Source: an uncultured Thermoleophilia bacterium
Lineage (GTDB): Bacteria; Actinomycetota; Thermoleophilia; UBA2241
DNA: 64,000 nt
Direction: 5' to 3'
Assembly (NCBI GenBank): GCA_963741075.1
Contig: CAVUGS010000019.1
Span: 157,313 to 221,312 of the forward strand
In this document: piece by piece, positions 32,242 through 64,000 of the stretch
Layout of the letters: each line of letters begins with the position of its first letter
Position numbering within the stretch: the stretch's first letter is position 1
The notes under the pieces: generated by a model
The model's database searches: none
What the model saw: the letters and a program-made list of their open reading frames with translations, nothing else
What the model was told of the DNA's origin: nothing
Position numbers and translations under genes: made by a program

Positions 32242-32283
32242 GGGCGGCGGAGACATGGTCTCAGCCGCCGCCCAGCACGCGGG

Positions 32284-38534: not shown

Positions 38535-38553
38535 GAACCTGAAGGAGCGACCC

Positions 38554-38584: not shown

Positions 38585-38681
38585 GCGGAGCCCTCCAGGG
38601 CTCCGCCGTCCGGCCGGCGTCCGCCCGCCTCTCCGGTCGCTCCCCGTCCGCGACGCGCGAGCGCCGCGCTGGAGGTACACG

Positions 38682-39323
38682 GTGAGCGACGGTCCCACCA
38701 TCTACGCTGCTGAACCCCTGCAGGTCTACCTCGACGACGCCGCCAGCAAGAAGCCGGCGCCCGGCGGCGGCAGCGTCTCCGCCTGCGTCGGCGCGCTCGG
38801 CGCCGCGCTCGTCGCCATGGTCTGCAACCTGACCCAGGGGCGCGAGAAGTTCGCCGACGTCGAGACCGAGATCGTCGCCCTCGTCGGCCAGGCCGAGCAG
38901 GACCAGAAGCGGCTCGAGCAGCTGCTGCAGGACGACACCACCGCCTACAACGGCGTCATCGACGCCTACAAGATGCCCAAGGACACGGACGAGGAGAAGG
39001 CGGCGCGCAAGGCGGCCGTCCAGGCCGGCCTCATCGTCGCCGCCGACGTCCCGCTCGAGATCTGCCGCGTCGCCGTGGACGTCTGCCGCCTCAGCAAGGT
39101 GGCGGCCGAGCTCGGCAACCCGCAGGCCGTCACCGACGCCGGCATCGGCGCGATCCTCGGCGAGGCCGCCGTCGTCGGCGCCGCGCTCAACGTGCGCATC
39201 AACCTCGGCTCCATCGAGGACTGCGACTACACGACGACCGCGGCCGCCGAGATCGACAAGATCCAGGCGGAGGCCGCGGCCCTGCGCGAGGAAGTCCTCG
39301 CCATCACGCTCTCCAAGCTCTGA
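38682..39323 (+). CDS. fchA: Cyclodeaminase/cyclohydrolase-family protein (FTCD C-terminal domain; FchA-like methenyl-THF cyclohydrolase), intact
   Basis: LDDAASKKPAPGGGSVSACVGALGAALVAMVCNLTQG is typical of FTCD_C/FchA. The ORF is 213 aa. Confidence 0.75.
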   Translation: MSDGPTIYAAEPLQVYLDDAASKKPAPGGGSVSACVGALGAALVAMVCNLTQGREKFADVETEIVALVGQAEQDQKRLEQLLQDDTTAYNGVIDAYKMPKDTDEEKAARKAAVQAGLIVAADVPLEICRVAVDVCRLSKVAAELGNPQAVTDAGIGAILGEAAVVGAALNVRINLGSIEDCDYTTTAAAEIDKIQAEAAALREEVLAITLSKL

Positions 39324-42891: not shown

Positions 42892-43075
42892 CGTTCCATC
42901 CATCAGACCCCTTGCCCCCCGGCTCGTTTTGTGCGTATCGTTCCTTAGGTGACTAACCAACGCAGTCCGGCGACGACCAGCAGGGGGTGGAACAAGCACA
43001 GCGGCAGTCCTGAGCACTACGGAACGCGGCGTGCCGCCGGGGGTCGGCCGGACGTCCGCAGACTAGGGGGGTAGT

Positions 43076-44703
43076 GTGGCAGAAGAACTCGCATTCGCAC
43101 GCAAAGCAAGCGGCCTCGTGCGCGGTCTGTCCATGACGGACGCCGTGGCCGTCGGCCTCATGAACCAGGGCATCACGCCCAGCATCTGGACGATGATCAC
43201 CTGGGGACTCGGTACGTATCTCACCGGCAACCTGCTCTGGGCGAGCGTCATCTCGCTCGTGCTCGTCGGCTTCGGCTTCCCGCTCGTCTGGGGCATCCTC
43301 TCCGGCAGCATGCCGCGCTCGGGCGGCGAGTACATCTACAACTCGCGCATCATCCACCCGATCGTCGGTATCGCCGAGAGCTTCGGCAACGCCTTCGTCA
43401 TGATCTTCTGGGTCTACGTCCTGGCGCCGTGGATCGCCGACCCGGGTCTCGTCATCATCGCGGAGTACGAGGGCTGGTCCTGGCTCTACAACAGCGACAC
43501 CGGCGCCTTCTTCGGGGGCCTCTCGTACAACTGGGGCGTGTTCGTCGTCGCGACTGTCGCCAACGTGCTGGCCGTGCTCACGATGATCTTCGGCGTGAAG
43601 ATCTTCGCGACCATCCAGAAGGCCATCATGATCTTCGCGCTCGGCGGCGCCGCCATCATCACCGGCGCCATCATGTTCAGCAGCAAGACGCTCGTTCGCC
43701 GCGAACTGGGACGCGATGGCGGCCAAGTACGACTCGCTCAAGTACTCCGAGGTGGTCCCCGCCGTGTCGAAGGCGATCGGTGAGGCGGTGCCGACCAGCT
43801 CGACCTTCTACGGCACGCTCGGCGTCATGGTCGCCGGCTCGTGGCTGTTCGCCTACGCCTACTTCTGCGTCTTCGTCGCGGGGGAGGTCAAGCGGCCGGA
43901 CAAGACGCTGATCAGCGCCAACTTCATCGCCATCCTCGTGCCGGCGCTGTTCATGATCTGGACCGCCCTGGCCATGTACCGCACGATGCCGTTCGACTTC
44001 ATCTCGGCGACGGCGTGGATCGACAACAACGGCGGCATCGACGGCTACAACCTGCCGTTCCTGCCCAGCTACATGAGCCTCGGGTACGTCGCCCACTCGA
44101 ACGTGATCGTGGCGCTGGCCGCCGGCGTGTCGTACATGCTGTTCTGCTTCTGGTACGTGGCGCTCAGCTACCTCGCCTTCCCGCGCATCATCTTCGCCTG
44201 GGGCATGGACCGCATGGGCCCCAAGTGGTTCACGTCGATCAACCCGCGGTGGGCCAGCCCGGTCAAGAACTACATCCTCTGCTTCGTCCTCTGCCAGGCG
44301 GCGATCGCGCTCTACTCGTTCTGGCTGGGCAGCTACATGCAGGGCCTTACGGTGACCGGCATGGAGATCGTCTCCGTGTGGGGCGTGACCACCATCGCCG
44401 CGATCCTCTTCCCCTACATGAAGCGCTCCAAGGGCATCTGGGAGTCGTCGCCGTACAGGACGTGGAAGTTCGCCGGCGTCCCGCTCATCGTCTGGGGCGG
44501 CCTGGTCTCCCTCGTCTACCTCGGCATCCTCTTCTACTTCCTGATCTTCACGGAGGAGATGAAGGACTCCAACGGCCAGTCGTGGATCCTGTACGGCATC
44601 GTCTGGGTCATCGGCATCATCTGGTACTTCTTCTGGGCCGGCCGCAGCAAGGCGCGTCGGTGTCGACGTCGGCATGACCTACGGGGAGCTGCCGCCGGAG
44701 TGA
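43076..44703 (+). CDS. APC-superfamily amino acid/polyamine permease, 2 frame shifts
   Basis: The GTG start follows a G6 run. The product is a multi-TM protein with GSMPRSGGEYIYNSR, AGEVKRPDKT and AFPRIIFAWGMDRMGPKWF. It is a paralogue of 45628-47284. Confidence 0.75.
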
Positions 44704-45535: not shown

Positions 45536-45627
45536 GGATCCGCGTTCGTGCCCGGTTGTTGTTCCATCAATCACGGCATCGCCGGCCAGGGGCCTGACCG
45601 GCGTGACGTTGCAGCAAGGGGGGAACT

Positions 45628-47284
45628 TTGGCTGAAGAACTAGCCTTTGCCCGCAAAGCCAGCGGCCTCGTCCGCGGCCTCTCCATGTGGGACGCGTTCG
45701 GCGTCGGCTTCATGAACCAGGGGCTCACGCCTTCGATCTGGGTCATGACCAGCCTCGGCGTCGGCGTCTACCTCGGCGGTAACCTCATCTGGGCGACGAT
45801 CATCTCGATGATCCTCGCCGGCATCGGCTTCCCGATCGTCTGGGGCGTGCTCGGCGGCTCCATGCCCCGGTCGGGCGGCGAGTACATCTACAACTCGCGC
45901 ATCATCCACCCCATCGTGGGTATCGGCGAGTCGTTCGGCAACGCCTTCGTGTGGATCATGTGGATCTACGTGCTGGCGCCCTGGATGGCCGATCCCGGCA
46001 TGGTGATGATGTCGCAGTTCATGGGCTGGACGTGGCTCTACAACCCCGAGACCGAGCAGTTCTTCGGGAGCCTCAGCTACACGTGGGGCAGCTTCGTCAT
46101 CGCCACCATCGCCAACATCGTCGCCTTCCTGTTCGTGGTGTTCGGCATCAAGTGGTTCGCGCGCATCCAGAAGGTCGTCATGATCTTCGGCATCGGCGGC
46201 TGCGCCGTGCTGCTCGCCGCCATCAGCTACTACGCGCTCAAGCTCGGCCAGACCGGGTTCGTGGACAGCTGGAACGCCACCGCCGCGCAGTACGGCTCGA
46301 TCGACTACGCCGGCTTCCTCGCCAAGGCCGGCGAAGAGGCCGGCCAGCGCCATGCCGACCACGTGGAACTGGTTCGACACCTTCGGCGTCATGGTCGCCG
46401 GCTCGTGGCTGTTCGCCTACAGCTACTGCATCACGTTCATCGCCGGCGAGGTGAAGCGTCCCGACAAGACCATCATCCTGTCGAACCTCTTCGCGATCAT
46501 CGTCCCCGGCGTGTTCATGCTCTGGGCGGCGGTCGCGCTGTACGGCCTGGTCAAGTTCGACTTCTTCTCGGCGACGCAGTTCGTCGACAACGCCGGCAGC
46601 GACCTGGGCGGCGCCTACACGGTGCCGTGGAGCACCAACTTCCTCGGCATCCTCGCCATGGTGACCACCAACAAGATCGTCCTGTTCATCTCGGTGCTGT
46701 CGTTCCTCGCGTTCGACCTGTGGTGGGTCGCGCTCAGCTACCTGGCGTTCCCGCGCATCATCTTCGCCTGGGGCATGGACCGCATGGGCCCCAAGTGGTT
46801 CACGGACATCAACCCGCGCTTCGCGAGCCCGGTCAAGAACCACGTCCTGTGCTTCGTGCTCGGCCAGATCATGATCGCCGTGTACGTCTTCTGGCAGAAC
46901 GAAGCGATGCAGGGCCTCGCCGTCACCGCGCTCGAGATCTTCTCCGTGTTCGGCGTGACGGCCATCGCGGCCCTGCTGTTCCCCTACGTCAAGCGCGCCA
47001 AGGGCATCTGGGACGCGTCGCCGTACAAGACCTGGAAGCTCGCCGGCATCCCGGTGGTCACGATCGGCGCGATCGTCGACCTCGTCTACCTGGGCATCCT
47101 GGCGTACTTCTTCTTCTTCCTCCCGGACCCGGACAAGCGCCTCGAGGGCTTCACCACCAACACGGCCATCCTCATCGCCGTGACGTGGATCGCGGGCATC
47201 ATCTGGTACCTGTTCTGGAAGCAGCGCAGCAAGAGCGTGGGCGTCGACGTGTCGATGACCTACGGCGAGTTGCCGCCTGAGTGA
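45628..47284 (+). CDS. APC-superfamily amino acid/polyamine permease, 1 frame shift near 46350
   Basis: The TTG start follows a G6 run. The conserved blocks are the same as in 43076-44703 (GSMPRSGGEYIYNSR, AGEVKRPDKT, AFPRIIFAWGMDRMGPKWF, C-terminal MTYGELPPE). Confidence 0.75.
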
Positions 47285-49312: not shown

Positions 49313-50710
49313 CTAGTGAGCGACGAGCTCGCCCTGCGCGGCCAGCTTGCGCACGTCGGCGAGCGTCGCGTCCAGGCGCTCGAGCACCTGGTCCATCTGC
49401 TCGTAGGTGATGATCGCCGGCGGCTGCATGCGCAGCGTGAGCGAGTTGAACAGCGTGCCGCCGATGAGCACGCCGCGGCCGAAGAGCCCCTGGCTCACGG
49501 CGTAGCCGATGTCGGAGTTCCTGAACTGCATGCCGATGATGACGCCCACGCCGCGGACCTCCTCGAAGAGGTCGTCGTAGACGCCGGCGAGCTCCTCGAG
49601 CTTGCCCTTGAGCCAGGCGCCCTTCTCGGCCGCCTGGCCCGGGATGTCCTCCTCGAGGGTGGCGTGCAGGGCGCCGATCGCGGCGGCCGTGGCCATGGGG
49701 TTGCCGCCGAACGTCGTCGTGTGGATGTACGGGTTCTCGTACATGGCTCGAGAACACGTCCTCGGTGGCGATGAAGTTGCCGATGGGGATGACCGCGCCG
49801 CCGAGCGCCTTGCCCATGCGTCATGATGTCGGGCGCCACGCCCGAGTGCTCCATGCCCCAGAGCTTGCCGGTGCGCCCCATGCCGGTCTGCACCTCGTCG
49901 GCGATGAGCAGGATGCCCCACTTGTCGCAGATCTCGCGGACCTTGGGGAAGTAGTCGTCGGGCGGGATGATCGCGCCCGGCCTCGCCCTGCACGGGCTCG
50001 ACGATGAAGGCGGCGATGTCGAAGCCGACCGCGTCGCAGATGCCGAGCTGCTTGTCGAGCGCGTCGGCGTCGCCGTAGGGCACGAAGCGCACGCCCGGGC
50101 ATGAGCGGGTAGAAGGGCTCGCGGAACTCGGCCTTGCCGCTGACGCTCAGGCGAGCCGAACGACTTGCCGTGGAAGCCGCGCGTGGTGGTGATGATGCCG
50201 AGTGAGTGGTTCGGCTTCTTGCGCCGCGCCCAGAGCTTGGCGAGCTTCATCGCGCCCTCGTTGGCCTCCGTGCCCGAGTTGCAGAAGAAGGAGTACCGCA
50301 GGTCGCCGGGCGTGACCATGGCGAGCAGGTGGCTGAGGTAGCCGCGCATCGGGTCGAGGAGCTCCTGCGAGTGCAGCGCCTGGTGCTCGAGCTGGTCGCG
50401 GACCGCCTTGACCACCGTGGGGTGCCGGTGCCCCAGCATGTAGATGCCGAAGCCGCCGAGGCAGTCGATGTACTCCTTGCCGTGGATGTCGTAGAAGACC
50501 GCAGCCCTCGTCGCGCCACTCGACCGACGTGTAGTCGGTCGAGACGGACTTGCGGTACTCGAGGATGCCGGGGTTGACGTAGCGGTCGAAGTTCGTGACG
50601 CAGTCGGTCACGACCTCCTGCTGCTGCTCCGCCGTGAGCTCGGATTTCGCCATCAGGTCGAGCGCCTTGCGCGATTCTCGCAACGCGTCTTGCCTAACTG
50701 CGTCCTGCAT
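49313..50710 (-). CDS. Class-III pyridoxal-phosphate aminotransferase, putrescine aminotransferase (PatA/YgjG)-like; about 5 frame shifts
   Basis: The protein is colinear with E. coli YgjG as I recall it. Matching segments include VNPGILEYRKSV, IDCLGGFGIYMLGHRHP, ALHSQELLDP, YSFFCNSGTEANEGAMKLAK, FIVEPVQGEAG, LIADEVQTGMGRTGK and HTTTFGGNP. Confidence 0.8.
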
Positions 50711-50763
50711 TCGTGTCCCCCAGTGCGAAAGTGTTGACTGCAGAATCCCCTGATTTGCAGTAG

Positions 50764-50786
50764 AGTTCGGTCGTATCAACCGAACT
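50764..50786. promoter_or_regulatory. Inverted repeat AGTTCGGT-N7-ACCGAACT in the divergent aminotransferase/TetR intergenic region
   Basis: The arms lie at 50764-50771 and 50779-50786. A second imperfect palindrome, ctgcagaat..atttgcag, lies at 50738-50760. Confidence 0.35.
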
Positions 50787-50862
50787 ATGATCGCAATGTA
50801 CTCCCATCGCCCGGCGGGCGCAACGGGCATGGGCGGCACGGCGTCAAGAGCCACCGCGGCGG

Positions 50863-51500
50863 ATGGTAGGGTGTGCGCATGAAGCGACGACGGGCACGAG
50901 GATCGCGGAGGACCCCACGGCGCAGCTGTCGCCGACGGCGCGCAAGCTGGTGGCCGCCGCGCGGCGCCTGCTGGCTCGCGGCGGCTACGAGGCGCTCACG
51001 GTGGAGGCCGTGGCGGCCGAGGCCGGCGCCTACCGCGACTCCGTGCGCTACTACTTCGGCAGCAAGGCGGCGTTCATCGCCGCGGTCGTCGACTCGCTCG
51101 CCCACGACCAGAGCCTCGGCGCGGTCGCGGAGACCGAGGCGGCGGCAGGGCGGCGACGAGCGCGTGCACGGGCTCGTCGCCGGCGACCGCCGCCTGGTCG
51201 CGGACCGCGACGCCTTCCGCGACTTCTTCGCCATCCTCCCGCACGTGGTGCTCGACGACGAGCTGCGCGAGCGGGTCGCGGCGCTGTACGAGTGGTACCG
51301 CGACCTCTACGTGGAAGGCCTCGGCGACGCCACGACGGTCGAGGACGAGCGGCTTCGTCGCTTCGCCTCGCTCATGGTCGCCATGACCGACGGTCTCGCC
51401 GTCCAGAAGCTGCTCGACCCCGACGGCGTGCGAGCTCGAGCCGCTGTTCGAGCTCTGGGAGAGCATGTTGCGCGCGGCCCTGGTGCCGGCGGAGGGCTGA
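50863..51500 (+). CDS. TetR-family transcriptional regulator, 2 frame shifts
   Basis: The HTH is [46 protein letters not shown]. The C-terminal ligand domain lies in the 50873 frame. TGA lies at 51498-51500. Confidence 0.7.
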
Positions 51501-51702
51501 GGCCTCGGGCTCCCGTACCGGCCTGGTCGGACCGCTCGTCTCCTGCCGGTGGACGCTCGCGGTCGTCTCCCGCACGCTGCTCGCGGCTCATTTACAGCGC
51601 CCAAACCGTGTTGTAGGCTCGCGGCGTGCTCGGCGGTACCGCATGGGGGGTCCCGCCTGGCCCCACAGGCCGGCACAGGGCTGCAAGTAGGAGGCATGGG
51701 TT

Positions 51703-51906
51703 TTGGCGCAGGGGACCGTGAAGTGGTTCAGCAACGAGAAGGGGTATGGGTTCATCGAACGGGAAGACGGTGACGACCTGTTCGTGCACTACTCCGAGAT
51801 CACCATGGACGGCTACAAGACGCTGGTCCAGGGGCAGCGCGTCGAGTTCGAGATCACCGAGGGCGACAAGGGTCTGCAGGCTTCCACGGTGAAGCCGGTC
51901 GTCTAG
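51703..51906 (+). CDS. Cold-shock protein (CspA family), TTG start
   Basis: The sequence [30 protein letters not shown] carries the RNP1/RNP2 motifs. An aggagg lies 8 nt upstream of the TTG. Confidence 0.9.
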
Positions 51907-51924
51907 TCGAGACACCTGCGACAG

Positions 51925-51966
51925 GGGGGCCCGCCGGCGGTCTTGCCGGCGGGCCCCCTTTCTTGT
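51925..51966 (+). terminator. Rho-independent terminator after csp
   Basis: gggggcccgccggc (51925-51938) pairs with gccggcgggccccc (51945-51958), followed by tttcttgt. Confidence 0.7.
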
Positions 51967-52031
51967 CGGTCATCTGAGGCTGGAGTACTATAGCCGTCCC
52001 GCTTTGGCGGCCCCAGCAGGAGGAACGCGAC

Positions 52032-52314
52032 ATGATCTCCGAAGACGACGTCCGCTACGTCGCGAAACTCGCCCGTCTCCGCATAGAGCAGGACGAGGCG
52101 GCGCGCATGACCGGCGAGCTGGCCAAGATCCTCGCGCACGTCGACAAGATGAGCGAGCTGGACATGGCCGACGTGCCGCCGACGGCGCACGTCCTCGACG
52201 TCGTCAACGTCACGCGCGAGGACAAGGAGCGCCCCGAGCCTTCCGCGCGACGAGGCCCTGCGCAACGCCCCCGCCGTGAGCGACGACTGCTTCCGTGTCC
52301 CGAGGATGGGCTGA
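52032..52314 (+). CDS. gatC: Glu/Asp-tRNA amidotransferase subunit C, 1 frame shift near 52245
   Basis: The N-terminus is [22 protein letters not shown]. The C-terminal [24 protein letters not shown] lies in the shifted frame. TGA lies at 52312-52314. Confidence 0.85.
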
Positions 52315-52315
52315 G

Positions 52316-53848
52316 GTGACGACGCTCGATCCGCTGCGCCTCACCGCGCGCGAGGCCAAACGGCTGCTCGTGGACGGGGAGGTCTCCGCCGCCGAGCTGA
52401 CCAAGGTGTACCTGGACCAGATCGCCGCGGTCGAGAGCAAGGTGCGCGCCTACATCCTCCACACGCCGGACAACGCGGCCAAGTACTCGACCAAGGTCGA
52501 CCGCGAGATGCAGGCGATGCGCGGCCCGCTGGCGGGCCTGCCCATCGCCGTCAAGGACAACATGGTCACCGAGGGCGTCACCACCACGTGCGCCTCGAGG
52601 ATCCTCCACAACTACCAGCCGGTCTACACCGCCACCGCGGTCCGCCAGGTGTGGGAGGACCACGTGGTCATGCTGGGCAAGACCAACCTGGACGAGTTCG
52701 CCATGGGCTCCAGCACCGAGAACTCGGCCTACCAGGTCACGGCCAACCCGTGGGACCTCAGCACCGTGCCCGGCGGCAGCAGCGGCGGCTCCGCCGCCGC
52801 CGTGGCCGCCGGCGAGGCGCTCTGGGCGCTGGGCAGCGACACCGGCGGCTCCATCCGCCAGCCGGCGGCGCTCTGCGGCATCGTCGGCATGAAGCCCACG
52901 TACGGCGCCGTCAGCCGCTACGGGCTCATCGCCTTCGCCAGCTCGCTGGACCAGATCGGCCCGCTCACGCGCTCCGTGTACGACTGCGCGCTCCTGCTGC
53001 AGCACCTCGTCGGCCGCGACCCGCGGGACGCCACCAGCGTGGAGCTGCCCGAGCCGATCGCGCTGCCCTCCGCCGAGCGGCTCGACGGGCTGCGCATCGG
53101 CGTGCCGTCCGAGTACCTCGCCGTCGGCATCGAGCCGGGCGTGCGCGCGCGCTTCGACGAGACGCTCGCGCGCGTCGAGGAGCTCGGCGGCACCTGCGTC
53201 GAGATCAGCCTGCCGCACACCGAGTACGCGCTGCCGGCGTACTACATCATCGCGCCGGCCGAGGCCTCGGCGAACCTCGCGCGCTTCGACGGCGTGCGCT
53301 ACGGCTACCGCTGCGCCGAACCGGCCGACCTGCTCGACCTGTACGAGCGCACGCGCGGCGAGGGCTTCGGCCCGGAGGTCAAGCGCCGCATCATGATCGG
53401 CACCTACGCGCTCTCCGCCGGCTACTACGACGCCTACTACGGGCGCGCCCAGAAGGTCCGCACCCTGGTGCGCCGCGACTTCGACGCGGCGTTCGCCGAC
53501 GTCGACCTGATCGCGTCCCCGACGTCGCCCACGGTGGCCTTCAAGGCCGGCTCGCGGACCGACGACCCGCTGGCCATGTACATGAGCGACATCTGCACCA
53601 TCCCGGCCAACCTCGCCGGGCTGCCCGCCGATCAGCATCCCCTGCGGGCTCAGCGACGGCCTGCCGGTGGGCTTCCAGCTCATCGGCCCGGCGTTCAGCG
53701 AGAACCGCATGCTCGAGGCCGCGCACGCGCTCGAGGGGGCGATCGGGTTCGACACGGCGCCGGCGTTCGCCGACTCGTCTCTGCGCGGTCCGGGCTGGAA
53801 CCAGACCGGCGAGAGCCGGTCTACCACCCGGAGGACGCACAGTCATGA
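52316..53848 (+). CDS. gatA: Glu/Asp-tRNA amidotransferase subunit A, 1-2 frame shifts near 53630; 3' end ambiguous
   Basis: The amidase signature [27 protein letters not shown] is present, along with [15 protein letters not shown] stop at 53846-53848 would give an ATGA overlap with gatB if a second indel is assumed. Confidence 0.85.
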
Positions 53849-55355
53849 ATGGCCGCCGCAGGCAAGCCATCGACGGGAGCGCCGGAGGTGCACCCGTCAG
53901 TAGCCGCTGGGAGCCGGTCATCGGCCTCGAGATGCACGTCGAGCTCGACACGCAGACCAAGATGTTCTGCGGCTGCGCCGTCACCAAGGGCGACGACCCC
54001 AACACGCACACCTGCCCGGTGTGCCTGGCGCACCCCGGCGCGCTGCCCGTGGTCAACAGGCGCGCCGTCGAGTACGCCGCGCGCATCGCCCTGGCGCTCG
54101 ACTGCACCGTGCAGCCGCGCAACATCTTCCACCGCAAGAACTACTTCTATCCGGACCTGCCCAAGGCGTACCAGATCAGCCAGTACGACGCGCCCCTGGC
54201 CACGGCCGGCCGGTTCGAGTACTGGGTGGACGGCGAGCTCCTCAGCTGCCGCATCAACCGGGTGCACATGGAGGAGGACGCCGCCAAGCTCGTCCACGCC
54301 GGCGGGGACACCGGCCGCATCGCCGGGTCCGACTACTCCATGGTCGACTTCAACCGCGGCGGCACGCCGCTCATCGAGATCGTCACCGAGCCGGACATCC
54401 CGTCGCCGGAGGCGGCGCGCGAGTTCCTTCAGCAGCTGCGCAACCTCGTCGTCGAGCTGGGCGTGAGCGAGTGCAACATGGAGGAGGGCCAGATCCGCTG
54501 GGACGCCAACATCAGCGTCCGGCCCCGGGGGAGCGAGGAGCTCGGCACGCGCACCGAGCTCAAGAACATGAACAGCTTCCGCTACCTGCAGCAGGCGCTC
54601 GACGCGGAGATCCCGCGGCAGATCGAGGTCCTCGAGGGCGGCGGCACGATCGACCTGGAGACGCTGCACTTCGACCCCGACACGGGCACGACGACGCCGC
54701 TGCGCAGCAAGGAAGAGGCGCACGACTACCGCTACTTCCCCGAGCCGGACCTCGTGCCCCTCGAGATCGACCCCGGCGTGGGTCTCGGAGCTGCGCGCGA
54801 CGCAGCCGGAGCTGCCGGCGGCGCGCGTGGAGCGTTTCATCTCCGACTACGGACTCTCGCGCGCCGACGCCGCCGTGCTCGGCTCGTCGGGCGCGCTCGC
54901 CGCGCTTCTACGAGGAGGTCGTGGCGGCCGGGGCCGGCGCCAAGCCGGCGGCCAACTGGACGATGGGCGAGTACCTCGCCCACCTCAACGCCGCCGGCCT
55001 CGAGGCCGGCCACGGCCACGTCACCGCCGAGCGCCTCGCCAAGCTCGTGCGGCTCGTCGAGGACGGCACCGTCTCGACGAGCGCCGGCAAGGACGTCTTC
55101 GCGAAGATGATCGAGGAGCGTGCGGAGCCCGAGGCGATCGTCGAGAAGCACGGCCTCGGCCAGATCAGCGACACCTCGGAGCTCGAAGCGCTCGTCGCCG
55201 AGGTCGTCGCCGCCAATCCCGCCCAGGTCGAGCAGTACCGCGGCGGCAAGCAGCAGGTCATCGGCTTCTTCGTCGGCCAGGTGATGAAGGCCAGCGGCGG
55301 GCGCGCCAACCCGCAGGTCGTGAACGACCTGCTGCGGCGCGCCCTCGACGCGTGA
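53845..55355 (+). CDS. gatB: Glu/Asp-tRNA amidotransferase subunit B, 2 frame shifts
   Basis: Matching segments include [50 protein letters not shown] and [11 protein letters not shown]. The C-terminal GatB/YqeY domain has [17 protein letters not shown]. Confidence 0.85.
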
Positions 55356-55401
55356 CCCGCGCCCACACAGTGACCTCCCCATTCCTTCGAGGCAGGTGAC
55401 C

Positions 55402-56635
55402 ATGACCAGCGATCTGTCCAGCTTCGTCATCGCTCCGCGGACCCGCCCGGCCGAGCCGGCCGTCCGCATCGACGACACCACCCTGCGCGACGGCGAGCAG
55501 ACCGCCGGCGTCGTGTTCAGCAACCACGAGAAGATCCGCATCGCCAAGCTGCTCGACGAGGTGGGCGTCCACCAGATCGAGGTCGGCATCCCGGCCATGG
55601 GCGGCGACGAGAAGAAGACCATCGCCGAGATCGTCGAGCTCGGCCTCGACACCTCCATCCTCGCCTGGAACCGGGCCGTCGTCGACGACATCCAGCACTC
55701 GATCGACTGCGGCGTCGACGCCGTGGCCATCAGCATGTCGGCGAGCGACATCCACATCGAGCACAAGCTCGCCGAAGTCGCGCCAGTGGGTGCTCGACCA
55801 GATCCGCGAGTGCGTGGCGTTCGCCAAGGACCAGAACCTGTACGTCTCGGTCAACGCCGAGGACGCCTCGCGCGCCGACCTCGAGTTCCTGCTGCGCTTC
55901 GGCCAGGCGGCCAAGGAGGAGGGCGCCGACCGCCTCCGCTTCTGCGACACGCTCGGCATCCTCGACCCGTTCGACACCTACAACGTGATCTCGTTCCTCA
56001 AGAAGGAGGGCGGGCTCGACATCGAGATGCACACGCACGACGACTTCGGCATGGCGACGGCCAACGCGCTGGCGGGCATCAAGGCCGGCGCCACCTACGT
56101 CAACACCACCGTCAACGGCCTCGGCGAGCGCGCGGGCAACGCCGCGCTCGAGGAGGTCGTGATGGCGCTCAAGTACCTCGGCAAGGTCGACGTCGGGCCT
56201 GCACACGAGCCGCTTCCGCGAGCTCAGCGAGTACGTCGCCGCCGCGTCGGCGCGCACCATCCCGGCGTGGAAGAGCATCGTGGGCACCAACGTGTTCGCC
56301 CACGAGAGCGGCATCCACGCCGACGGCGTCATCAAGAACCCGCTCAACTACGAGGCGTTCGCGCCCGAGGACGTGGGGCTGGAGCGCCAGATCGTGGTCG
56401 GCAAGCACTCCGGCTCGCGCACCATCTACCGCAAGTTCCAGGAGTTCGGGCTCGAGCTCACCCAGGAGGACTGCGACGGCGTGCTCGCGCTCGTGCGCAA
56501 GACGGCGGTGGAGCTCAAGCGGGCGCTGTTCGACAAGGAGCTCATGTACATCTACCAGGACTACCTCGGGCACCTCGGCGACGCCGTGCCGATGGGCACG
56601 CCGGGCGAGGCGTCGGCGCGCGTCCGGAGCGCTGA
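55402..56635 (+). CDS. Homocitrate synthase / Re-citrate synthase / short isopropylmalate-synthase-family enzyme (no LeuA regulatory domain), 2 frame shifts; 3' end unresolved
   Basis: Matching segments include IDDTTLRDGEQ, IEVGIPAMG, EMHTHDDFGMATANALAGIKAGATYVNTTVNGLGERAGNAALEEV and FAHESGIHADG. Confidence 0.75.
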
Positions 56636-57893
56636 GACGCCGCCACCCTCGCCGAGAAGCTCCTGGCGGCGCACGCCGGGCTCGAGTCCGTCGTTCCCGG
56701 CCAGATCGTGGTCTGCGACGTGGACGTCGCGATCGCCCAGGACGGCACCGGCCCGCTCGCCATCACAGCAGATCGAGGAGCTGGGCGCGGAGCGCGTCAA
56801 GGCGCCGGAGTGCGTGTTCTTCATCGACCACGCCGCGCCGGCGCCGCGCAGCGAGCTCGCCAACGCGCAGAAGACGATCAGGGCCTTCTGCGCGGAGTCC
56901 GGCGCGACCCTGAGCGACATCGAGATGGGCGTGTGCCACCAGCGCGTCGCCGAGAGCTACGCCAAGCCCGGCGACCTCGTCATCGGCGCCGACTCGCACA
57001 CCTGCATGGCCGGCGCCCTGGGGGCGTTCGCCACCGGCATGGGCAGCACCGACGTCGCCGTGGGCATGGCCAGCGGCAAGACCTGGCTGCGCGTGCCCGA
57101 GACGTTCCGCATCGAGGTCGAGGGCGCCTTCGCCGACGGCGTCGAGGCCAAGGACCTGATGCTCACGCTCATCGGGCAGCTGGGCGCCGACGGCGCCACG
57201 TACAAGGCGCTCGAGTTCGGCGGGCCGGGCATCGACGCGATGCCCATGCCCGGCCGCCTGACGCTGAGCAACATGGCCGTCGAGGCCGGCGCCAAGTGCG
57301 GCCTCATGCCCAGCGACGAGACGACGAAGGCGTTCCTGGCGGCGCAGGGCCGCGAGGACGGACTGGCGGCCGCTCGCGGCCGACCCCGGCGCCGCCTACG
57401 AGCGCGTCGTGCCGTTCGACCTCGCGCGCCATCGTGCCGACGGTGGCGAAGCCGCACACCGTGGACAACACCGCGGCGGCGGCGGAGCTCGGCGGGCACC
57501 AGGGTGGACCAGGTGTTCATCGGCACCTGCACCAACGGCCGCCTCGAGGACCTGCGCTCGGCGGCGCGCATCCTGCGCGGGCGCCGCCGCGCCCCGGGCA
57601 CGCGCCTCATCGTGACGCCGGCCTCGCAGGCCACGGCGCGCGCAGCCGCGGCCGAGGGCCTGTTCGAGGTGTTCTGGGACGCCGGCGCCGTCATCACCAA
57701 TCCCAGCTGCGGCGCCTGCGTCGGCATCCACGACGGCATCCTCGCCGACGGCGAGGTGTGCATCAGCACCGCCAACCGCAACTTCCACGGCCGCATGGGC
57801 AACCCTGAGGCTTCCATCTACCTGGGCTCGCCGGCCACCGCGGCCGCTTCGGCCGTGGCCGGCGAGATCACCGATCCCCGCGAGTTCCTCTAG
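56592..57893 (+). CDS. Aconitase-family large subunit (LeuC/HacA type), about 3 frame shifts; start uncertain
   Basis: Matching segments include [67 protein letters not shown] and [12 protein letters not shown] lies at 57891-57893. Confidence 0.8.
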
Positions 57894-57906
57894 AAAGGAG
57901 GACGCT

Positions 57907-58428
57907 GTGGCCAAGCAGTACAGCGCTCCGCCGGAGATGGTCATCGACCCGAGCAAGCGCTACACGGCGACCATCAGCACCGACAACGGCGACATCGTCA
58001 TCGAGCTGTTCGCCGACAAGGCGCCGCGCACCGTCAACAACTTCGTCTTTCTCGCCCGTGAGGGCTACTACGACGGCGTCACGTTCCACCGCGTCATCAA
58101 GGGCTTCATGGCCCAGGGCGGCGACCCCACGGGGAGCGGCAGCGGCGGTCCGGGCTACAAGTTCGCCGACGAGTTCCACCCGGCGCTCAAGCACGACGGC
58201 GCCGGCATCCTCTCGATGGCCAATGCCGGGCCGGGCACCAACGGCTCGCAGTTCTTCATCACCTACGGCGCGACGCCCCACCTCGACGGCAGGCACACCG
58301 TGTTCGGCAGGGTGATCGAGGGCATGGACGTCGTCGAGGCGATCCCGGAGCGCGACCCCATGCGGGCGCGCGAGCCGGGCATCGCCATGAACTCGGTGGT
58401 GATCACCGAGGAGGAGTGGGTCACGTGA
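57907..58428 (+). CDS. Cyclophilin-type peptidyl-prolyl cis-trans isomerase, intact
   Basis: Matching segments are [31 protein letters not shown] and [16 protein letters not shown]. The GTG start follows aaaggagg. Confidence 0.9.
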
Positions 58429-58973
58429 ATGCGTCGAGCTGGAGCCGGAGGCACCGCTCGCGAGCTCGCGGCCGGGCCTGGCTGTTCGGCGACGACATCA
58501 GCACCGACCACATCGCGCCCGGCCGTCTGTTCCACCTGCGCACCAACATGCCCGAGCTGGCCAAGCACGTCCTCGAGGACGCGCGTCCCGAGTTCGCCGG
58601 CGAGATGCGCCCAGGCGACTTCGTCGTGGGCGGCCGCAACTTCGGCCTCGGCTCGAGCCGCGAGCACGCGCCGCGCATCATCAAGATCGCCGGGGTAGGG
58701 GCGGTGCTGGCGCAGAGCTTCGCGCGCATCTTCTTCCGCAACGCCATCAACGTCGGCCTGCCGGTGCTGCAGTGCGACACCAGCGGCATCGGCGAGCAGG
58801 ACGAGCTCGAGGTGGACCTGGAGGCCGGTGAGGTCAGGGACCTGACCACCGGCGCCGTCATCCCCTTCGTCCCGCTCCCGCCGGTGATGGTGACCATCCT
58901 GAACGACGGCGGCCTCGTCGCCCACGTCAAGAAGCACGGCGGCTTCGCGCTGCCGGGAGGACCTGAAGCATGA
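58425..58973 (+). CDS. Aconitase-family small subunit (LeuD/HacB type) with an HLRT substrate loop
   Basis: Matching segments are [40 protein letters not shown] and [15 protein letters not shown]. The GTG start overlaps the upstream stop as GTGA. Confidence 0.8.
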
Positions 58974-59975
58974 CCTACACCGTGACCCTGATCCCCGGCG
59001 ACGGCACCGGCCCCGAGCTGGCCGCCGCGCTCGAGACCGTCATCGCCGCCACCGGCGTGCCCATCCTCTGGGAGGTGCACGACGCCGGGCTCGACGTGAT
59101 GGAGGAGTACGGCACGCCGCTGCCGGAGCACGTGCTCGAGTCGATCCGCCGCACCAAGGTGGCGATCAAGGGTCCGATCACGACGCCGGTCGGCAAGGGC
59201 TTCCGCAGCGTCAACGTGGCGCTGCGCAAGGAGCTCGACCTGTACGCCTGCCTGCGCCCCTCCAAGACGATGAAGGGCGTGCGCACCCGCTTCGACGACA
59301 TCGACCTCGTCGTCGTGCGCGAGAACACCGAGGACCTCTACGCCGGCATCGAGCACATGGTCACGGACGACGCCGCCGAGAGCATCAAGATCATCACGCG
59401 CCGCGGGACCGAGCGCATCGTGCGCTTCGCCTTCGAGTACGCGCGCAAGCACGGCCGCCGCAAGGTCACCGCCGTGCACAAGGCCAACATCATGAAGTGC
59501 ACCGACGGGCTCTTCCTGCGCGTCGCCGGCGAGGTCGCCGAGCGGCTACCCCGACATCGAGTTCGAGGACCGCATCGTCGACAACATGTGCATGCAGCTG
59601 GTGCAGAAGCCGGAGCTGTACGACGTGCTCGTGCTGCCCAACCTGTACGGCGACATCGTGAGCGACCTGTGCGCCGGGCTCATCGGCGGCCTCGGCGTGG
59701 CGCCCGGCGCCAACATCGGCGACGACGCCGCCGTGTTCGAGCCCGTGCACGGCAGCGCGCCCAAGTACGCCGGCCAGGACAAGGTGAACCCCACGGCGCT
59801 GCTCCGCTCCGGCGTGCTGCTGCTCGACCACCTCGGCGAGGCCGAGGCGGCGCGGCGCATGGAAGGCGCCATCGCCGCCGTCATCGCCGAGGGCAAGGAC
59901 GTCACCTACGACCTCGGCGGCTCGGCCGGCACCTCCGGCATGGCCGCCGCCATCGCCCGCCGCATCGCCGGCTGA
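58970..59975 (+). CDS. Isocitrate/homoisocitrate/isopropylmalate dehydrogenase-family enzyme (copy 1), 1 frame shift near 59545
   Basis: Matching segments are [63 protein letters not shown] and FEPVHGSAP. The ATG overlaps the upstream stop as ATGA. Confidence 0.85.
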
Positions 59976-59991
59976 GGCAAGGAGGCTCGTC

Positions 59992-60387
59992 ATGGAAGAG
60001 GAGGAACGCCACATCAACCTGCACGCCACGCCGGAGATGATGGCGGGCGTGTACGCCAACTTCGCCAACGTGAGCCACTCCGACTACGAGTTCTCGATCA
60101 CCTTCGTGCGCCTCGACCACGAGAGCGAGGAGGGCGGCGAGCTGAACGGCGTCGTCGTGAGCCGCGTGAACCTCTCGGCGCGGTTCATGAAGGAGCTCGT
60201 CGACGCCATGAACGACAACTACGGCAAGTGGCTGCAGGCGGAGAACATCAAGAACCTGCCCGTGCGGCCGACGGATGCGGAGTACGAGCGCGTGGTGCGC
60301 GTTCGACTAGGTAAAAGTCGTGCAGATGGTGGCGAAACCGCACACGGTGGACAACAAGGCGACGGCGGCGGAGCTCAACGGCACTAA
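59992..60387 (+). CDS. DUF3467-family protein (copy 1) whose 3' end is replaced at the duplication junction by out-of-frame leuC-derived sequence
   Basis: Residues up to ..QAENIKNLP match copy 2 (62883-63191). From about 60259 the ORF reads into leuC-like DNA ([11 protein letters not shown]...). Confidence 0.6.
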
Positions 60388-60778
60388 GGTCGACCAGGTG
60401 CTCATCGGCACCTGCACGAACGGGCGCCTCGAGGACCTGCGCGCGGCGGCGCGTGTGCTGCGCGGGCGCCGCCGCGCCCCGGGCACGCGCCTCATCGTGA
60501 CGCCGGCCTCGCAGGCCACGGCGCGCGCAGCCGCGGCCGAGGGCCTGTTCGAAGTGTTCTGGGACGCCGGCGCCGTCATCACCAATCCCGCCTGCGGCGC
60601 CTGCGTCGGCATCCACGAGGGCATCCTCGCCGACGGCGACGTGTGCATCAGCACCGCCAACCGCAACTTCCACGGCCGCATGGGCAACCCTGAGGCCTCC
60701 ATCTACCTGGGCTCGCCGGCCACCGCGGCCGCTTCGGCCGTGGCCGGCGAGATCACCGATCCGCGCGAGCTCCTCTAG
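60263..60778 (+). pseudogene. 5'-truncated leuC-like fragment (C-terminal ~170 residues only) created by the duplication
   Basis: An in-frame TAG lies at about 60308, where copy 1 has CTC. Downstream, ORF 60320-60778 encodes [30 protein letters not shown]. The about 270 N-terminal residues are absent. Confidence 0.75.
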
Positions 60779-60791
60779 AAAGGAGGACGCT

Positions 60792-61302
<511 letters not shown>

Positions 61303-61313
<11 letters not shown>

Positions 61314-61865
61314 GGTCGCGGAGCTGTCGAGCGGGGCACCGGAGCTCCGTGAGAGCTCCGCGGCCGGGCCTGGCTGTTCGGCGACGACATCAGCACCGAC
61401 CACATCGCGCCCGGCCGTCTGTTCCACCTGCGCACCAACATGCCGGAGCTGGCCAAGCACGTGCTCGAGGACGCGCGTCCCGAGTTCGCCGGCGAGATGC
61501 GCCCAGGCGACTTCGTCGTGGGCGGCCGCAACTTCGGCCTCGGCTCGAGCCGCGAGCACGCACCGCGCATCATCAAGATCGCCGGGGTAGGGGCGGTGCT
61601 GGCGCAGAGCTTCGCGCGCATCTTCTTCCGCAACGCCATCAACGTCGGCCTGCCGGTGCTGCAGTGCGACACCAGCGGCATCGGCGAGCAGGACGAGCTC
61701 GAGGTGGACCTGGAGGCCGGTGAGGTCAGGGACAGGACCACCGGCGCCGTCATCCCCTTCGTCCCGCTCCCGCCGGTGATGGTGACCATCCTGAACGACG
61801 GCGGCCTCGTCGCCCACGTCAAGAAGCACGGCGGCTTCGCGCTGCCGGGAGGACCTGAAGCATGA
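61303..61865 (+). CDS. Aconitase-family small subunit (copy 2); the 5' end is disturbed by a 7-nt length difference from copy 1
   Basis: From [15 protein letters not shown] to the stop it is identical to copy 1 except for one residue (RDRTTG vs RDLTTG). ORF 61440-61865 covers the 3' part. Confidence 0.7.
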
Positions 61866-62866
61866 CCTACACCGTGACCCTGATCCCCGGCGACGGCACC
61901 GGCCCCGAGCTGGCCGCCGCGCTCGAGACCGTCATCGCCGCCACCGGCGTGCCCATCCACTGGGAGGTGCACGACGCCGGGCTCGACGTGATGGAGGAGT
62001 ACGGCACGCCGCTGCCGGAGCACGTGCTCGAGTCGATCCGCCGCACCAAGGTGGCGATCAAGGGGCCGATCACGACGCCGGTCGGCAAGGGCTTCCGCAG
62101 CGTCAACGTGGCGCTGCGCAAGGAGCTCGACCTGTACGCCTGCCTGCGCCCCTCCAAGACGATGAAGGGCGTGCGCACGCGCTTCGACGACATCGACCTC
62201 GTCGTCGTGCGCGAGAACACCGAGGACCTGTACGCCGGCATCGAGCACAAGGTCACGGACGACGCCGCCGAGAGCATCAAGATCATCACGCGCCGCGGGA
62301 CGGAGCGCATCGTGCGCTTCGCCTTCGAGTACGCGCGCAAGCACGGCCGGCGCAAGGTCACCGCCGTGCACAAGGCCAACATCATGAAGTGCACCGACGG
62401 GCTCTTCCTGCGCGTCGCCGGCGAGGTCGCCGAGCAGTACCCCGACATCGAGTTCGAGGACCGCATCGTCGACAACATGTGCATGCAGCTGGTGCAGAAG
62501 CCGGAGCTGTACGACGTGCTGGTGCTGCCCAACCTGTACGGCGACATCCTGAGCGACCTCTGCGCCGGGCTCGTCGGCGGCCTGGGCGTGGCGCCGGGCG
62601 CCAACATCGGCGACGACGGCGCCGTGTTCGAGCCGGTGCACGGCAGCGCGCCCAAGTACGACGGGCAGGACAAGGTCAACCCCACGGCGCTGATCCTCTC
62701 CGGCGTGCTGATGCTCGAGCACCTCGGCGAGGCCGAGGCGGCGCGGCGGATGGAAGGCGCCATCGCCGCCGTCATCGCCGAGGGCAAGGACGTCACGTAC
62801 GACCTCGGCGGCTCGGCCGGGACCTCCGGCATGGCCGCCGCCATCGCCCGCCGCATCGCCGGCTGA
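61862..62866 (+). CDS. Isocitrate/homoisocitrate/isopropylmalate dehydrogenase-family enzyme (copy 2), intact
   Basis: A single 334-aa ORF that differs from copy 1 at about a dozen residues (e.g. IHW vs ILW, YDGQ vs YAGQ). Confidence 0.9.
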
Positions 62867-62882
62867 GGCAAGGAGGCTCCTC

Positions 62883-63191
62883 ATGGAAGAGGACGAACGG
62901 CACATCAACCTGCACGCCACGCCGGAGATGATGGCGGGCGTGTACGCCAACTTCGCCAACGTGAGCCACTCCGACTACGAGTTCTCGATCACCTTCGTGC
63001 GCCTCGACCACGAGAGCGAGGAGCCCGAAGAGCTGAACGGCGTCGTGGTCAGCCGCGTGAACCTCTCCGCGCGGTTCATGAAGGAGCTGGTCGACGCCAT
63101 GAGCGACAACTACGGCAAGTGGCTGCAGGCGGAGAACATCAAGAACCTCCCCGAGGCCCCCGGGCACGATCAGCCGGCGGAGCCGAGCTGA
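62883..63191 (+). CDS. DUF3467-family protein (copy 2), intact
   Basis: The 102-aa ORF has [46 protein letters not shown]. Confidence 0.7.
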
Positions 63192-63310
63192 CGTGAGGGG
63201 CGCCGCCAGGCACACCTCACAGTAACCTGCGGAGTAGCGTTGTCGTGGGGGGCGCCGCAGGTGCACCCCACAGTAGCCGGCGGAGCCGAACTGACGTGAG
63301 GGCGCCGCGC
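63172..63310 (+). repeat. Imperfect short tandem repeats (about 51-52-nt hairpin units, and a 35-nt direct repeat 102 nt apart) spanning the 3' end of the DUF3467 gene
   Basis: agccggcggagccgaRctgacgtgaggg occurs at 63172 and 63274. The hairpins are gtgagg..cctcac (63193-63220) and gtgggg..ccccac (63245-63270). Confidence 0.6.
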
Positions 63311-63375
63311 CAGAATGGCCAAGCGCCCCTCCGTTTCGGCTCCTTTTTGCCCTGCATTCCGCGCGTTTCCCATCG

Positions 63376-63405
63376 TTGCCGCCCCGCCCCCGGGTCGGCT
63401 AGAAT
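63376..63405 (+). promoter_or_regulatory. Candidate promoter TTGCCG-N18-TAGAAT ahead of the oxidoreductase gene
   Basis: ttgccg lies at 63376-63381 and tagaat at 63400-63405. Confidence 0.35.
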
Positions 63406-63510
63406 GGCTGGGCCTGTACTCCCACGTTCCTCTTGGTCTCACGCTGGAGCCGCGTGCGGTCCGCCGGGGGGGAACGGTGGCGATCCCGTCGCACGTCTCA
63501 GGAGGACGCA

Positions 63511-64000
63511 GTGGACTTCTACCAGGGCAAGGTGCTCAGGCTCGACCTGAGCGCGGGCGCCTCTACCGTCGAGCCGCTCAACATGGAGTGGGCAGAGCGC
63601 TACATCGGCGGCAAGGGCCTGCTTCTTCGCTACATGTGGGACGAGGTCCCGCGCAACGTCGACCCGTGGGCGCCGGAGAACCCGGTCATCCTCATGACCG
63701 GCCCGTTCGCCGGCACCAACGTCAGCACCGCCTCGCGCCTGGTGGTGGGCTGCAAGAGCCCCCAGACCGGCATCCTGAACGACAGCTACGTGGGCGGCTC
63801 GTTCGCCCCCGAGCTCAAGTTCGCCGGCTACGACGCGGTCATCATCACCGGCGAGTCGCCCGAGCCGGTCGTCGTCACCATCAAGGACGACGTCGTCAGC
63901 TTCGTGCCGGCCAAGCCCAAGTACTGGGGCATGAAGACGTCGGAGATCGAGGAGGCCATGCGCCAGGACTTCGACGCCGACGCCAAGACGCTGTCCATCG
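63511..64000 (+). CDS. Aldehyde:ferredoxin oxidoreductase (tungsten/molybdenum AOR family), N-terminal part; runs off the window
   Basis: The GTG start at 63511 follows aggagg. Matching segments include GKVLRLDLSAG, AERYIGGKGLLLRYMWDEV, VILMTGPFAGT, RLVVGCKSPQTG and ELKFAGYDAVIITG. Confidence 0.8.
   Translation, partial: MDFYQGKVLRLDLSAGASTVEPLNMEWAERYIGGKGLLLRYMWDEVPRNVDPWAPENPVILMTGPFAGTNVSTASRLVVGCKSPQTGILNDSYVGGSFAPELKFAGYDAVIITGESPEPVVVTIKDDVVSFVPAKPKYWGMKTSEIEEAMRQDFDADAKTLSI

Follow-up and report, generated by a model that had tools for sequence, protein, structure and literature searches.

The window considered here, a stretch of 64,000 nucleotides from a contig of an uncultured Thermoleophilia bacterium, carries near its end two colinear, head-to-tail copies of a 2.9-kb operon segment, and the question that this locus raises is whether the second copy arose in a genome or in an assembly. 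A preliminary description had recognized the duplication by eye; it is present in the sequence, with 95.3% identity between unit 1 and unit 2 over 2905 columns of local alignment, interrupted by 20 small gaps, and a separate repeat search gives an agreeing spacing of 2885–2892. Pfam and tblastn place the same genes in both units, namely the 3′ third of an aconitase-family large subunit, a cyclophilin, a small subunit, an Iso_dh dehydrogenase and DUF3467 (table 1).

Table 1. Features of the repeat and its flanks, followed by the substitutions between the two units in each segment (positions of unit 1).
Feature	Position	Strand	Remarks
Homocitrate-synthase-like gene	55402..56618	+	upstream of repeat; Pfam HMGL-like, HCS_D2
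Aconitase/homoaconitase-family large subunit, full length	56573..57893	+	start extrapolated from L082 alignment; last third (from 57376) opens unit 1
Repeat unit 1	57376..60262	+	alignment, Pfam, tblastn
Unit-1 cyclophilin	57907–58428	+	intact, 173 aa
Unit-1 small subunit	58416–58973	+	intact
Unit-1 dehydrogenase	58970–59975	+	frameshift, +1 at 59543–59546
Unit-1 DUF3467	59992–60262	+	cut off after NIKNLP
Junction	60263	.	single T between truncated unit-1 DUF3467 and large-subunit-derived start of unit 2
Repeat unit 2	60264..63153	+	alignment, Pfam, tblastn
Unit-2 large-subunit 3′ fragment	60264–60778	+	TAG at 60308, +1 at 60298, Q replacing invariant P
Unit-2 cyclophilin	60792–61312	+	broken, two +1 insertions at 61152–61165
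Unit-2 small subunit	about 61303–61865	+	frame problem in N-terminal linker, ~20 codons
Unit-2 dehydrogenase	61862–62866	+	intact, 334 aa
Unit-2 dehydrogenase patch, residues 230–286	62549..62719	+	differences from unit 1 common to natural allele P0004 (contig L081)
Unit-2 DUF3467	62883–63191	+	intact
Small tandem repeat just downstream of unit 2	63172..63302	+	three copies, period ~52 nt
Unit 1–unit 2 substitutions	57376–57500		21.5%
Unit 1–unit 2 substitutions	57501–58368		4–5%
Unit 1–unit 2 substitutions	58369–58507		24%
Unit 1–unit 2 substitutions	58508–59607		1.4% (near-identical 1.1-kb core)
Unit 1–unit 2 substitutions	59608–59857		6.0%
Unit 1–unit 2 substitutions	59858–60262		4.0%

The operon is of a recognizable kind. 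The intact orthologue of the homocitrate-synthase-like gene (L082:416-1672) scores 528.5 bits against the homocitrate synthase equivalog TIGR02660 (cut-off 462.9), the large subunit 549 bits against TIGR01343 (cut-off 385.7) and the small subunit 179.5 bits against TIGR02087 (cut-off 108.95), and the two dehydratase subunits fall within the hacA/LeuD-DmdB families of a homocitrate synthase/homoaconitase 2-oxoacid elongation operon. The dehydrogenase matches Pfam Iso_dh clearly and scores below cut-off for the isocitrate, homoisocitrate and isopropylmalate equivalogs of NCBIfam. The cyclophilin and DUF3467 are lineage-specific, being present in the close clade only and in 0 of about 65 more distant loci.

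This gene content bears on one origin that had been suggested for the repeat, recombination between two paralogous operons of one genome, for instance leucine-type and homocitrate-type dehydratase/dehydrogenase clusters. Such an event would account for the colinearity of the units, but both of them hold the clade-specific cyclophilin and DUF3467, where a separate paralogue would lack both genes and be far more divergent. Unit 2 shares 95% identity with unit 1 and about 90% (89–91%) with the one orthologous locus that L001, L003 and L082 each possess; these identities are too high for a true paralogue, and the explanation is rejected as extremely improbable.

The comparison with related genomes that the preliminary description had called for finds the single-copy state throughout: the segment occurs once in each of seven close relatives (L001–L004 and L082–L084), and L001–L004 are colinear with the window through both of its flanks. 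Alleles of the unit-2 type are found in other samples. The dehydrogenase residues L230, G253 and I278 of unit 2 are rare states that, among 120 homologues, are common to P0004 alone or nearly alone, ten nucleotide sites of the surrounding patch are common to L081, and a DUF3467 allele of the unit-2 type is present in soil run X49 (136/137 identity). Contig L081, whose own name (contig_6454) is Flye-style, terminates within the same operon, an instance of this operon interrupting an assembly in another sample as well.

Divergence between the units is uneven, as had been judged by eye: set against the divergence of the L001 and L003 orthologues as a baseline, substitutions range from 1.4% to 24% per segment (χ2 test, p=4e-10). 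Several smaller observations hold equally well, including the in-frame TAG (60308–60310), the single residue that separates the small subunits within their alignable part (L to R, 58842/61734) and the dozen or so residues said to separate the dehydrogenases, of which we count 11. The first 130 nt or so were described as highly divergent, and they are, but they are largely not special to the repeat; the L001 and L003 orthologues are equally variable over the first 125 nt (22.5%), and much of the divergence is therefore a trait of this stretch rather than of a repeat boundary. At the right boundary no rise in divergence is seen in the alignment of the units, the last 60 nt holding 2 differences. 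The near-identical core, with 4–6% divergence on either side, gives the patchwork expected of gene conversion between paralogues; recombination between strains yields the same pattern, and the patchwork thus does not discriminate between the two.

A separate signature is that of single-base insertions, which were counted as clean single-base changes private to the window when judged against three to six relatives. There are 44 such insertions, whereas deletions of one base number only 6. The added base repeats the relatives' alternative allele at an adjacent polymorphic site in 37 of the 44 insertions, compared with 20% at control positions (binomial p~1e-19), and codon-by-codon reading shows that most are C/G doublings at third codon positions. 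Genes broken in this way along the window include gatA, gatB, argS, Nuo51 and homocitrate synthase, and each shifted segment nevertheless encodes conserved protein. The homocitrate-synthase-like gene is split over three frames by +1 insertions at ~55772 and ~56194, with the intact L082 orthologue matching it by tblastn as three HSPs in frames 1, 2 and 3, and the full-length large subunit has insertions at 56765, 57359, 57427 and 57494, its frame passing 0→1→2→0 across 57359–57494. Extra bases at 57356 and 57427 are missing from near-identical short-read contigs, and matching contigs end at the unit-2 insertions near 61153. Since conserved genes are broken while the shifted segments still code for conserved protein, the insertions are not biological.

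Doubling of alternative alleles is how an unphased long-read consensus errs when it merges haplotypes, and 37 doublings among 44 insertions indicate for this reason that the contig was built from mixed strains. As read from the assembled letters, the pattern shows that a single Thermoleophilia population, in which two or more strains co-occur, supplied the reads behind the contig. The doublings are about equally frequent inside the units and in the flanks, which requires more than two strains or cross-mapped reads and is a point against an assembly artefact as the source of the repeat. A related error is known from early unphased long-read assembly, where the FALCON consensus placed indels at heterozygous sites and kept apart only very divergent regions (Korlach et al. 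2017, PMC5632298). As in the window, where the 37 of 44 allele doublings match this behaviour, those indels lie exactly at nucleotides that differ between haplotypes; the doubling form itself, with both alleles in tandem, is our reading of the present sequence and is a form that Korlach et al. 2017 (PMC5632298) do not describe.

These errors also change how gene damage in the two units is to be understood. The damage had been called complementary, and for two of the genes it is so arranged, the dehydrogenase being shifted in unit 1 and intact in unit 2, and the cyclophilin intact in unit 1 and broken in unit 2. The large subunit does not fit, because its full-length copy at unit 1 itself carries four +1 insertions. 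As biology, complementary damage is unsupported: the same allele-doubling errors strike gatA, gatB, argS and homocitrate synthase elsewhere in the window.

We therefore turn to the last of the origins proposed earlier, an assembly artefact joining two strain haplotypes, which is the one we favour given the contig-wide mixed-strain signature, the single-copy relatives and the occurrence of unit alleles in other samples. The repeat is likely to be a heterotype false duplication, made when an unphased metagenome assembly of long-read style placed the segments of two co-occurring soil strains in tandem. Similar stretches of the strains would have been merged by consensus, and at some polymorphic sites the consensus would have written both alleles side by side (GTC/GTG becoming GTCG), creating +1 ‘frameshifts’ along the window. 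From the 3′ third of the large subunit to DUF3467, where the haplotypes would be some 4–5% apart save for the near-identical central 1.1 kb, 2.9 kb would have been left unmerged, and the assembler would have kept both haplotypes, setting one directly behind the other with a join at 60262/60264; the step by which it connected the tail of the first to the head of the second is one that we infer. If this is correct, the genome has one copy of the segment, as in all relatives, the ‘mosaic divergence’ records the past recombination of two natural alleles, and the ‘complementary damage’ is consensus error.

Haplotype sequences retained ‘as a false tandem duplication’ have been described in other assemblies (bioRxiv 10.1101/2020.05.22.110833; PMC9516828). 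As in the present case, alleles too divergent to be merged are both kept, adjacent to one another, while less diverged flanks are merged and genes are falsely gained (Rhie et al., bioRxiv 10.1101/2020.05.22.110833, Box 1; Ko et al. 2022, PMC9516828). What is expected of a false duplication is found here as allele-level divergence between adjacent colinear copies, independent evidence of haplotype merging and single-copy relatives. The published examples concern the two haplotypes of a diploid animal, whereas here the haplotypes would belong to co-occurring bacterial strains in a metagenome, and there the copies are usually separated by a gap and covered at half depth, whereas the present copies lack an N gap and are known from sequence alone. 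In metagenomes, strains at about 95% identity cause serious polishing errors in metaFlye, and the myloasm preprint reports that such strains are recovered only in part, with Qscore below 25 (bioRxiv 10.1101/2025.09.05.674543). The two units differ to the same degree as those strains, although the preprint deals with quality scores and with plasmid and virus duplications, and not with internal chromosomal tandem duplications like this one (bioRxiv 10.1101/2025.09.05.674543).

At the junction, copy 1 of DUF3467 is, as first reported, cut after NIKNLP and fused to large-subunit-derived sequence. The join is clean, has no run of N and shows weak microhomology (CCCG.GGCC) between the two parental sequences, a detail in favour of a real tandem duplication. 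Real illegitimate recombination would look like such a clean single-base join. Unit 2 opens with ~60 nt of aberrant sequence (TAG, +1 insertion, invariant P lost), but the stretch is also hypervariable among orthologues. Against a real duplication, the 40-mer across the junction has no match in two public contig collections, one of genome contigs and one of metagenome contigs, read depth over 60270–60329 is zero in four related metagenome runs (X49, X12, X50 and X4), and contigs that reach 60262 go on with the normal end of DUF3467, AGGCCCCCGG.

Genuine tandem duplications and transformation merodiploids of bacteria join their copies head to tail through one new junction at a short homology, and can be heteroallelic if the donor is another strain; the duplications are unstable and their copies are usually near-identical. 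The present repeat has the same layout and a single junction, but its units are known from one assembled contig and not from one molecule. Bacterial direct repeats of 2.9 kb at 95–100% identity are quickly lost by homologous recombination, and their long persistence needs selection, which disfavours a real duplication. Such a duplication is, further, absent from all relatives, and the mixed-strain consensus of the contig already supplies two haplotypes without it. A real tandem duplication in the genome, whether old and in place with gene conversion or made heteroallelic in one step, is in our judgement unlikely.

Differences between the units look like those of natural alleles, being synonymous-biased (dS ~0.07, dN/dS 0.2–0.5) and dominated by C↔G changes at third positions. 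When polarized, 57 fall on the unit-2 branch and 19 on that of unit 1, so that the former is about three times longer; with synonymous changes only, the counts are 26 and 11, and of 120 homologues, 116 are nearer to the unit-1 dehydrogenase than to that of unit 2. The copies of a simple in-place duplication would be of equal age, with branches of equal length, and this asymmetry counts against such an event. An older in-place duplication with copies kept partly alike by gene conversion, as proposed earlier, would produce the patchy identity, including the near-identical core; the unequal branches, the lack of any effect at the right edge and the lack of a relative with the duplication do not agree with it, and it fits less well than an artefact. 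Unit 2 is richer in non-synonymous, non-conservative changes at conserved positions (M130K and A267D in the dehydrogenase; K to D and G to D in the cyclophilin), and its promoterless large-subunit fragment combines Q for an invariant P with the TAG. Relaxed selection on a second copy that is real and redundant might account for this excess.

Copies that differ from the outset would be expected if DNA of another strain, about 5% divergent, had been taken up and had entered the genome by homology at one end (DUF3467 and downstream) and by illegitimate joining at microhomology at the other. A single event of this sort would give a tandem merodiploid of the homoaconitase–cyclophilin–dehydrogenase segment, with the second copy decaying, and it would account for the unit-2 alleles seen in other lineages; we regard this heteroallelic course as quite improbable. 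A real duplication would offer a modest case of heteroallelic tandem duplication from an uncultured lineage of soil actinobacteria.

Probably no gene duplication took place here, and the repeat has little biological interest in itself. If it is an artefact, it matters only as a warning that gene-family expansions, pseudogene counts and ‘complementary degeneration’ drawn from such contigs would be wrong. The allele-doubling signature makes an inexpensive test possible on the contig sequence itself, with no need of reads: where private +1 insertions duplicate the alternative allele at polymorphic sites, mostly third-codon C/G sites, the metagenome contig is flagged as a merged-strain consensus, and diverged tandem repeats near such insertions are to be distrusted. 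Close behind unit 2, at the small tandem repeat, related strains are without 102 nt, their contigs (X49, X50, X51, X1, X2 and X4) jumping from 63195/63197 to 63298/63300.

Local alignment resolves a head-to-tail, colinear repeat of two units with 95.3% identity over 2905 columns and 20 small gaps, and a separate repeat search returned a matching spacing of 2885-2892 nt. Gene order is identical in the two units (Pfam; tblastn using an intact orthologue as query), and the gene content is that claimed in the preliminary description. The repeat is preceded by gatC, gatA, gatB and a homocitrate-synthase-like gene, and is followed by aldehyde:ferredoxin oxidoreductase. NCBIfam names homocitrate synthase and homoaconitase-family large and small subunits, while the dehydrogenase is of an isocitrate/homoisocitrate type that is not assignable more closely. 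Exact-protein look-up gave no database record for the unit-2 dehydrogenase or the unit-1 cyclophilin. The sequence observations made earlier are confirmed: the TAG lies at 60308, DUF3467 is cut short after NIKNLP, all of the named frameshifts are present, and the dozen or so residue differences between the dehydrogenases number 11. The large subunit, described as complete in unit 1, is full-length there but not intact, carrying four +1 insertions (56765, 57359, 57427 and 57494). The biological interpretation, by contrast, is mostly not borne out.

Coordinates of the repeat, its genes and other features of the window
Feature	Coordinates	Second copy	Remarks
Repeat unit (1 and 2)	57376-60262	60264-63153	In order: aconitase-family large subunit (last third), cyclophilin, small subunit, Iso_dh dehydrogenase, DUF3467
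Cyclophilin	57907-58428	60792-61312	Between large and small dehydratase subunits
DUF3467	59992-60262	62883-63191	3′ of the dehydrogenase
Cluster of unit-2 differences		62549-62719	Dehydrogenase residues 230-286
Tandem repeat	63172-63302		Three copies, period about 52 nt, beginning in the last DUF3467 codons
Direct repeat	184-860	12195-12875	About 12 kb apart; 73-93% identical, with an 86-nt stretch at 93%
Adjacent colinear stretches	43065-44549	45617-47119	2552-2570 nt apart; 74-81% identical
Open reading frame	45628-47277		No Pfam match
Open reading frame, minus strand	33105-35216		One open frame; Glyco_transf_4 N-terminal match and N6_N4 DNA methylase match
Antisense open reading frame, minus strand	7524-9593		690 aa

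Frameshifts are not confined to the repeat. Compared with the closest relatives, private single extra bases occur every 335-2000 nt both inside and outside it; +1 insertions also break gatA, gatB and homocitrate synthase, and argS, Nuo51 and a molybdopterin oxidoreductase are fragmented likewise. A GC3 phase plot divides the 64 kb into 114 phase segments. Each shifted segment still encodes conserved protein, so the frameshifts are not old mutations; across 57359-57494, for example, the correct reading of the large subunit passes successively through frames 0, 1, 2 and 0. Codon-level reading shows that what has been added is, in nearly every case, the alternative allele of a polymorphic site. 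The synonymous codons GTC and GTG, both found among relatives, become GTCG at 56194 and 61288; GCC/GCG becomes GCCG at 55772 and 61159, and GGC/GGG becomes GGCG at 54778 and 57494. Further doubling sites lie at 53628, 54905, 57359 and 59543, and others fall within 24000-29699.

This doubling of alleles was tested on all clean cases in two regions (21515-39290 and 51956-63153) against the relatives that had been fetched. Private single-base insertions outnumber deletions by 44 to 6, and 37 of the 44 add a base that relatives carry as an allele at the adjacent site, compared with 20% at control positions (p about 1e-19). The density of insertions is uneven, with 25 in 23565-31940 and only three in 33134-39290. 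Random long-read noise was rejected as the cause, given the excess of insertions and their placement at polymorphic sites, as was genome-wide pseudogenization, since essential genes are affected and yet all shifted segments encode conserved protein. Indels at sites that differ between haplotypes are a known error of unphased long-read consensus (PMC5632298). It follows from the match to relatives' alleles that the contig is the product of at least two strains. The damage to the two units, previously called complementary, reflects the same background process of insertion acting at different sites.

The nearest genomes are uncultured Thermoleophilia MAGs of 80-91% nucleotide identity. Four loci from close relatives (L001-L004) hold one copy and are colinear with the window on both flanks: window 50002-60262 and 60283-63175 map to one and the same interval of L001, and 63309-64000 carries on past it. 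L082-L084, which are metagenome contigs, likewise carry a single copy and have intact genes, so that all seven close relatives checked have the single-copy state. All seven share the arrangement of cyclophilin and DUF3467, and the roughly 65 more distant loci that share the dehydrogenase all lack it; the pair therefore represents a lineage-specific addition to the operon. Its presence in both units, otherwise restricted to this close clade, together with the identity of unit 2 to unit 1 (95%) and to the one orthologous locus (about 90%), makes the proposed recombination between two paralogous operons highly improbable, and it is rejected here.

The junction is likewise absent elsewhere. Its 40-mer matches nothing in the two public contig collections, and public runs searched with the repeat, the junction and a 10-kb flank, Nanopore libraries included, contain the junction in no case (best share of words 0.41). 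Four related runs from soil and wetland have zero depth across 60270-60329, and contigs reaching 60262 continue with AGGCCCCCGG, the normal end of DUF3467. The extra bases at 57356 and 57427 are missing from short-read contigs of related soil strains, and matching short-read contigs stop at the unit-2 insertions near 61153. Logan contigs of the related runs (40-650 nt, several strains), which speak for the relatives and not for the source sample, show relatives without the extra bases and without the junction. An 81-kb contig from another sample (L081; ENA ERZ25039477 contig_6454, positions 1-270), which has a Flye-style name, ends within this operon at a point 266 nt before the dehydrogenase, and it carries the AFOR gene in two pieces. 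This suggests that the locus is a recurrent assembly break point in these populations.

Divergence between the units is indeed uneven, and significantly so when the divergence of two orthologues is taken as the baseline (p = 4e-10). Substitutions amount to 21.5% in the first 125 nt, 4-5% in the remaining large subunit and cyclophilin, 24% at the cyclophilin/small-subunit boundary, 1.4% over 58508-59607, 6% over 59608-59857 and 4% from there to the end. The divergent first stretch reported earlier is real, with the correction that orthologues are equally variable there (22.5%). Contig-end noise, considered as an account of the unusual opening 60 nt in unit 2, was not relied upon given this hypervariability, and the contig end of L081 is not noisy. 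Gene conversion between the copies of a real tandem duplication could produce such patchy identity, and the clean junction with its weak microhomology would be expected of a duplication too, but the right boundary shows no edge effect in divergence (two differences over the final 60 nt).

The differences between the units are mostly natural variation rather than noise. C/G changes at third positions predominate, with dS about 0.07 and dN/dS of 0.2-0.5 (0.1-0.2 for orthologue pairs; DUF3467 values left out). Polarizing the changes with four outgroups assigns 57 to unit 2 and 19 to unit 1. Once its one extra base is taken out, the unit-1 dehydrogenase is nearer than that of unit 2 to 116 of the 120 database homologues, although unit 2 was the query that retrieved them. 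The clustered unit-2 differences in the dehydrogenase are common to one natural protein, P0004, encoded on L081. L230, G253 and I278 are rare states that unit 2 has in common with this single database protein, and some of the common states occur in no, or almost no, other member of the set of 120 homologues; the cluster is a clear recombination patch between lineages. A DUF3467 allele of unit-2 type occurs in a related metagenome run, X49 (136/137 identity). Taken with the patch shared with P0004, this indicates that unit 2 circulates as an allele and has a recombination history of its own. Unit 2 also carries changes at conserved positions, namely M130K and A267D in the dehydrogenase, two cyclophilin residues and, in the large-subunit fragment, Q for an invariant P in addition to the TAG; these may be errors or reflect relaxed selection. 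Such extra non-conservative changes would fit the redundant copy of a real duplication. The unequal branch lengths do not, no relative has the duplication, and a mixed-strain consensus already provides two haplotypes without one, making a real duplication unlikely.

The assembly artefact joining two strain haplotypes, one of the possibilities raised in the preliminary description, is accordingly favoured on the strain mixture, the single-copy relatives, the natural alleles and the absent junction, and the duplication is probably not a feature of the genome. The repeat is likely to be a heterotype false duplication arising from mixed-strain assembly, a described pattern (bioRxiv 10.1101/2020.05.22.110833; PMC9516828) that is matched by merged similar regions beside unmerged versions 4-5% divergent. 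Where the strains are similar they would have been merged, leaving allele-doubling indels; exactly where the versions differ by 4-5%, two unmerged versions would have been laid head to tail, the assembler presumably linking the two haplotypes. Early FALCON behaved in a matching way, keeping apart only very divergent regions and merging everything else (PMC5632298), and poor consensus has been reported for metaFlye with strains about 95% identical (bioRxiv 10.1101/2025.09.05.674543).

Within the tandem repeat at the end of DUF3467, related-strain contigs in six runs skip 102 nt (63195/63197 to 63298/63300), which are also missing from L003; this could be either another local fault of the assembly or a genuine small repeat. 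The 690-aa antisense frame has no close relatives in a scan of genome contigs. The adjacent colinear stretches resemble two paralogous genes from an older tandem duplication, and the direct repeat probably represents two paralogous genes. The minus-strand frame with glycosyltransferase and methylase matches may be a two-gene read-through due to consensus errors of this same kind, or else a genuine fusion.
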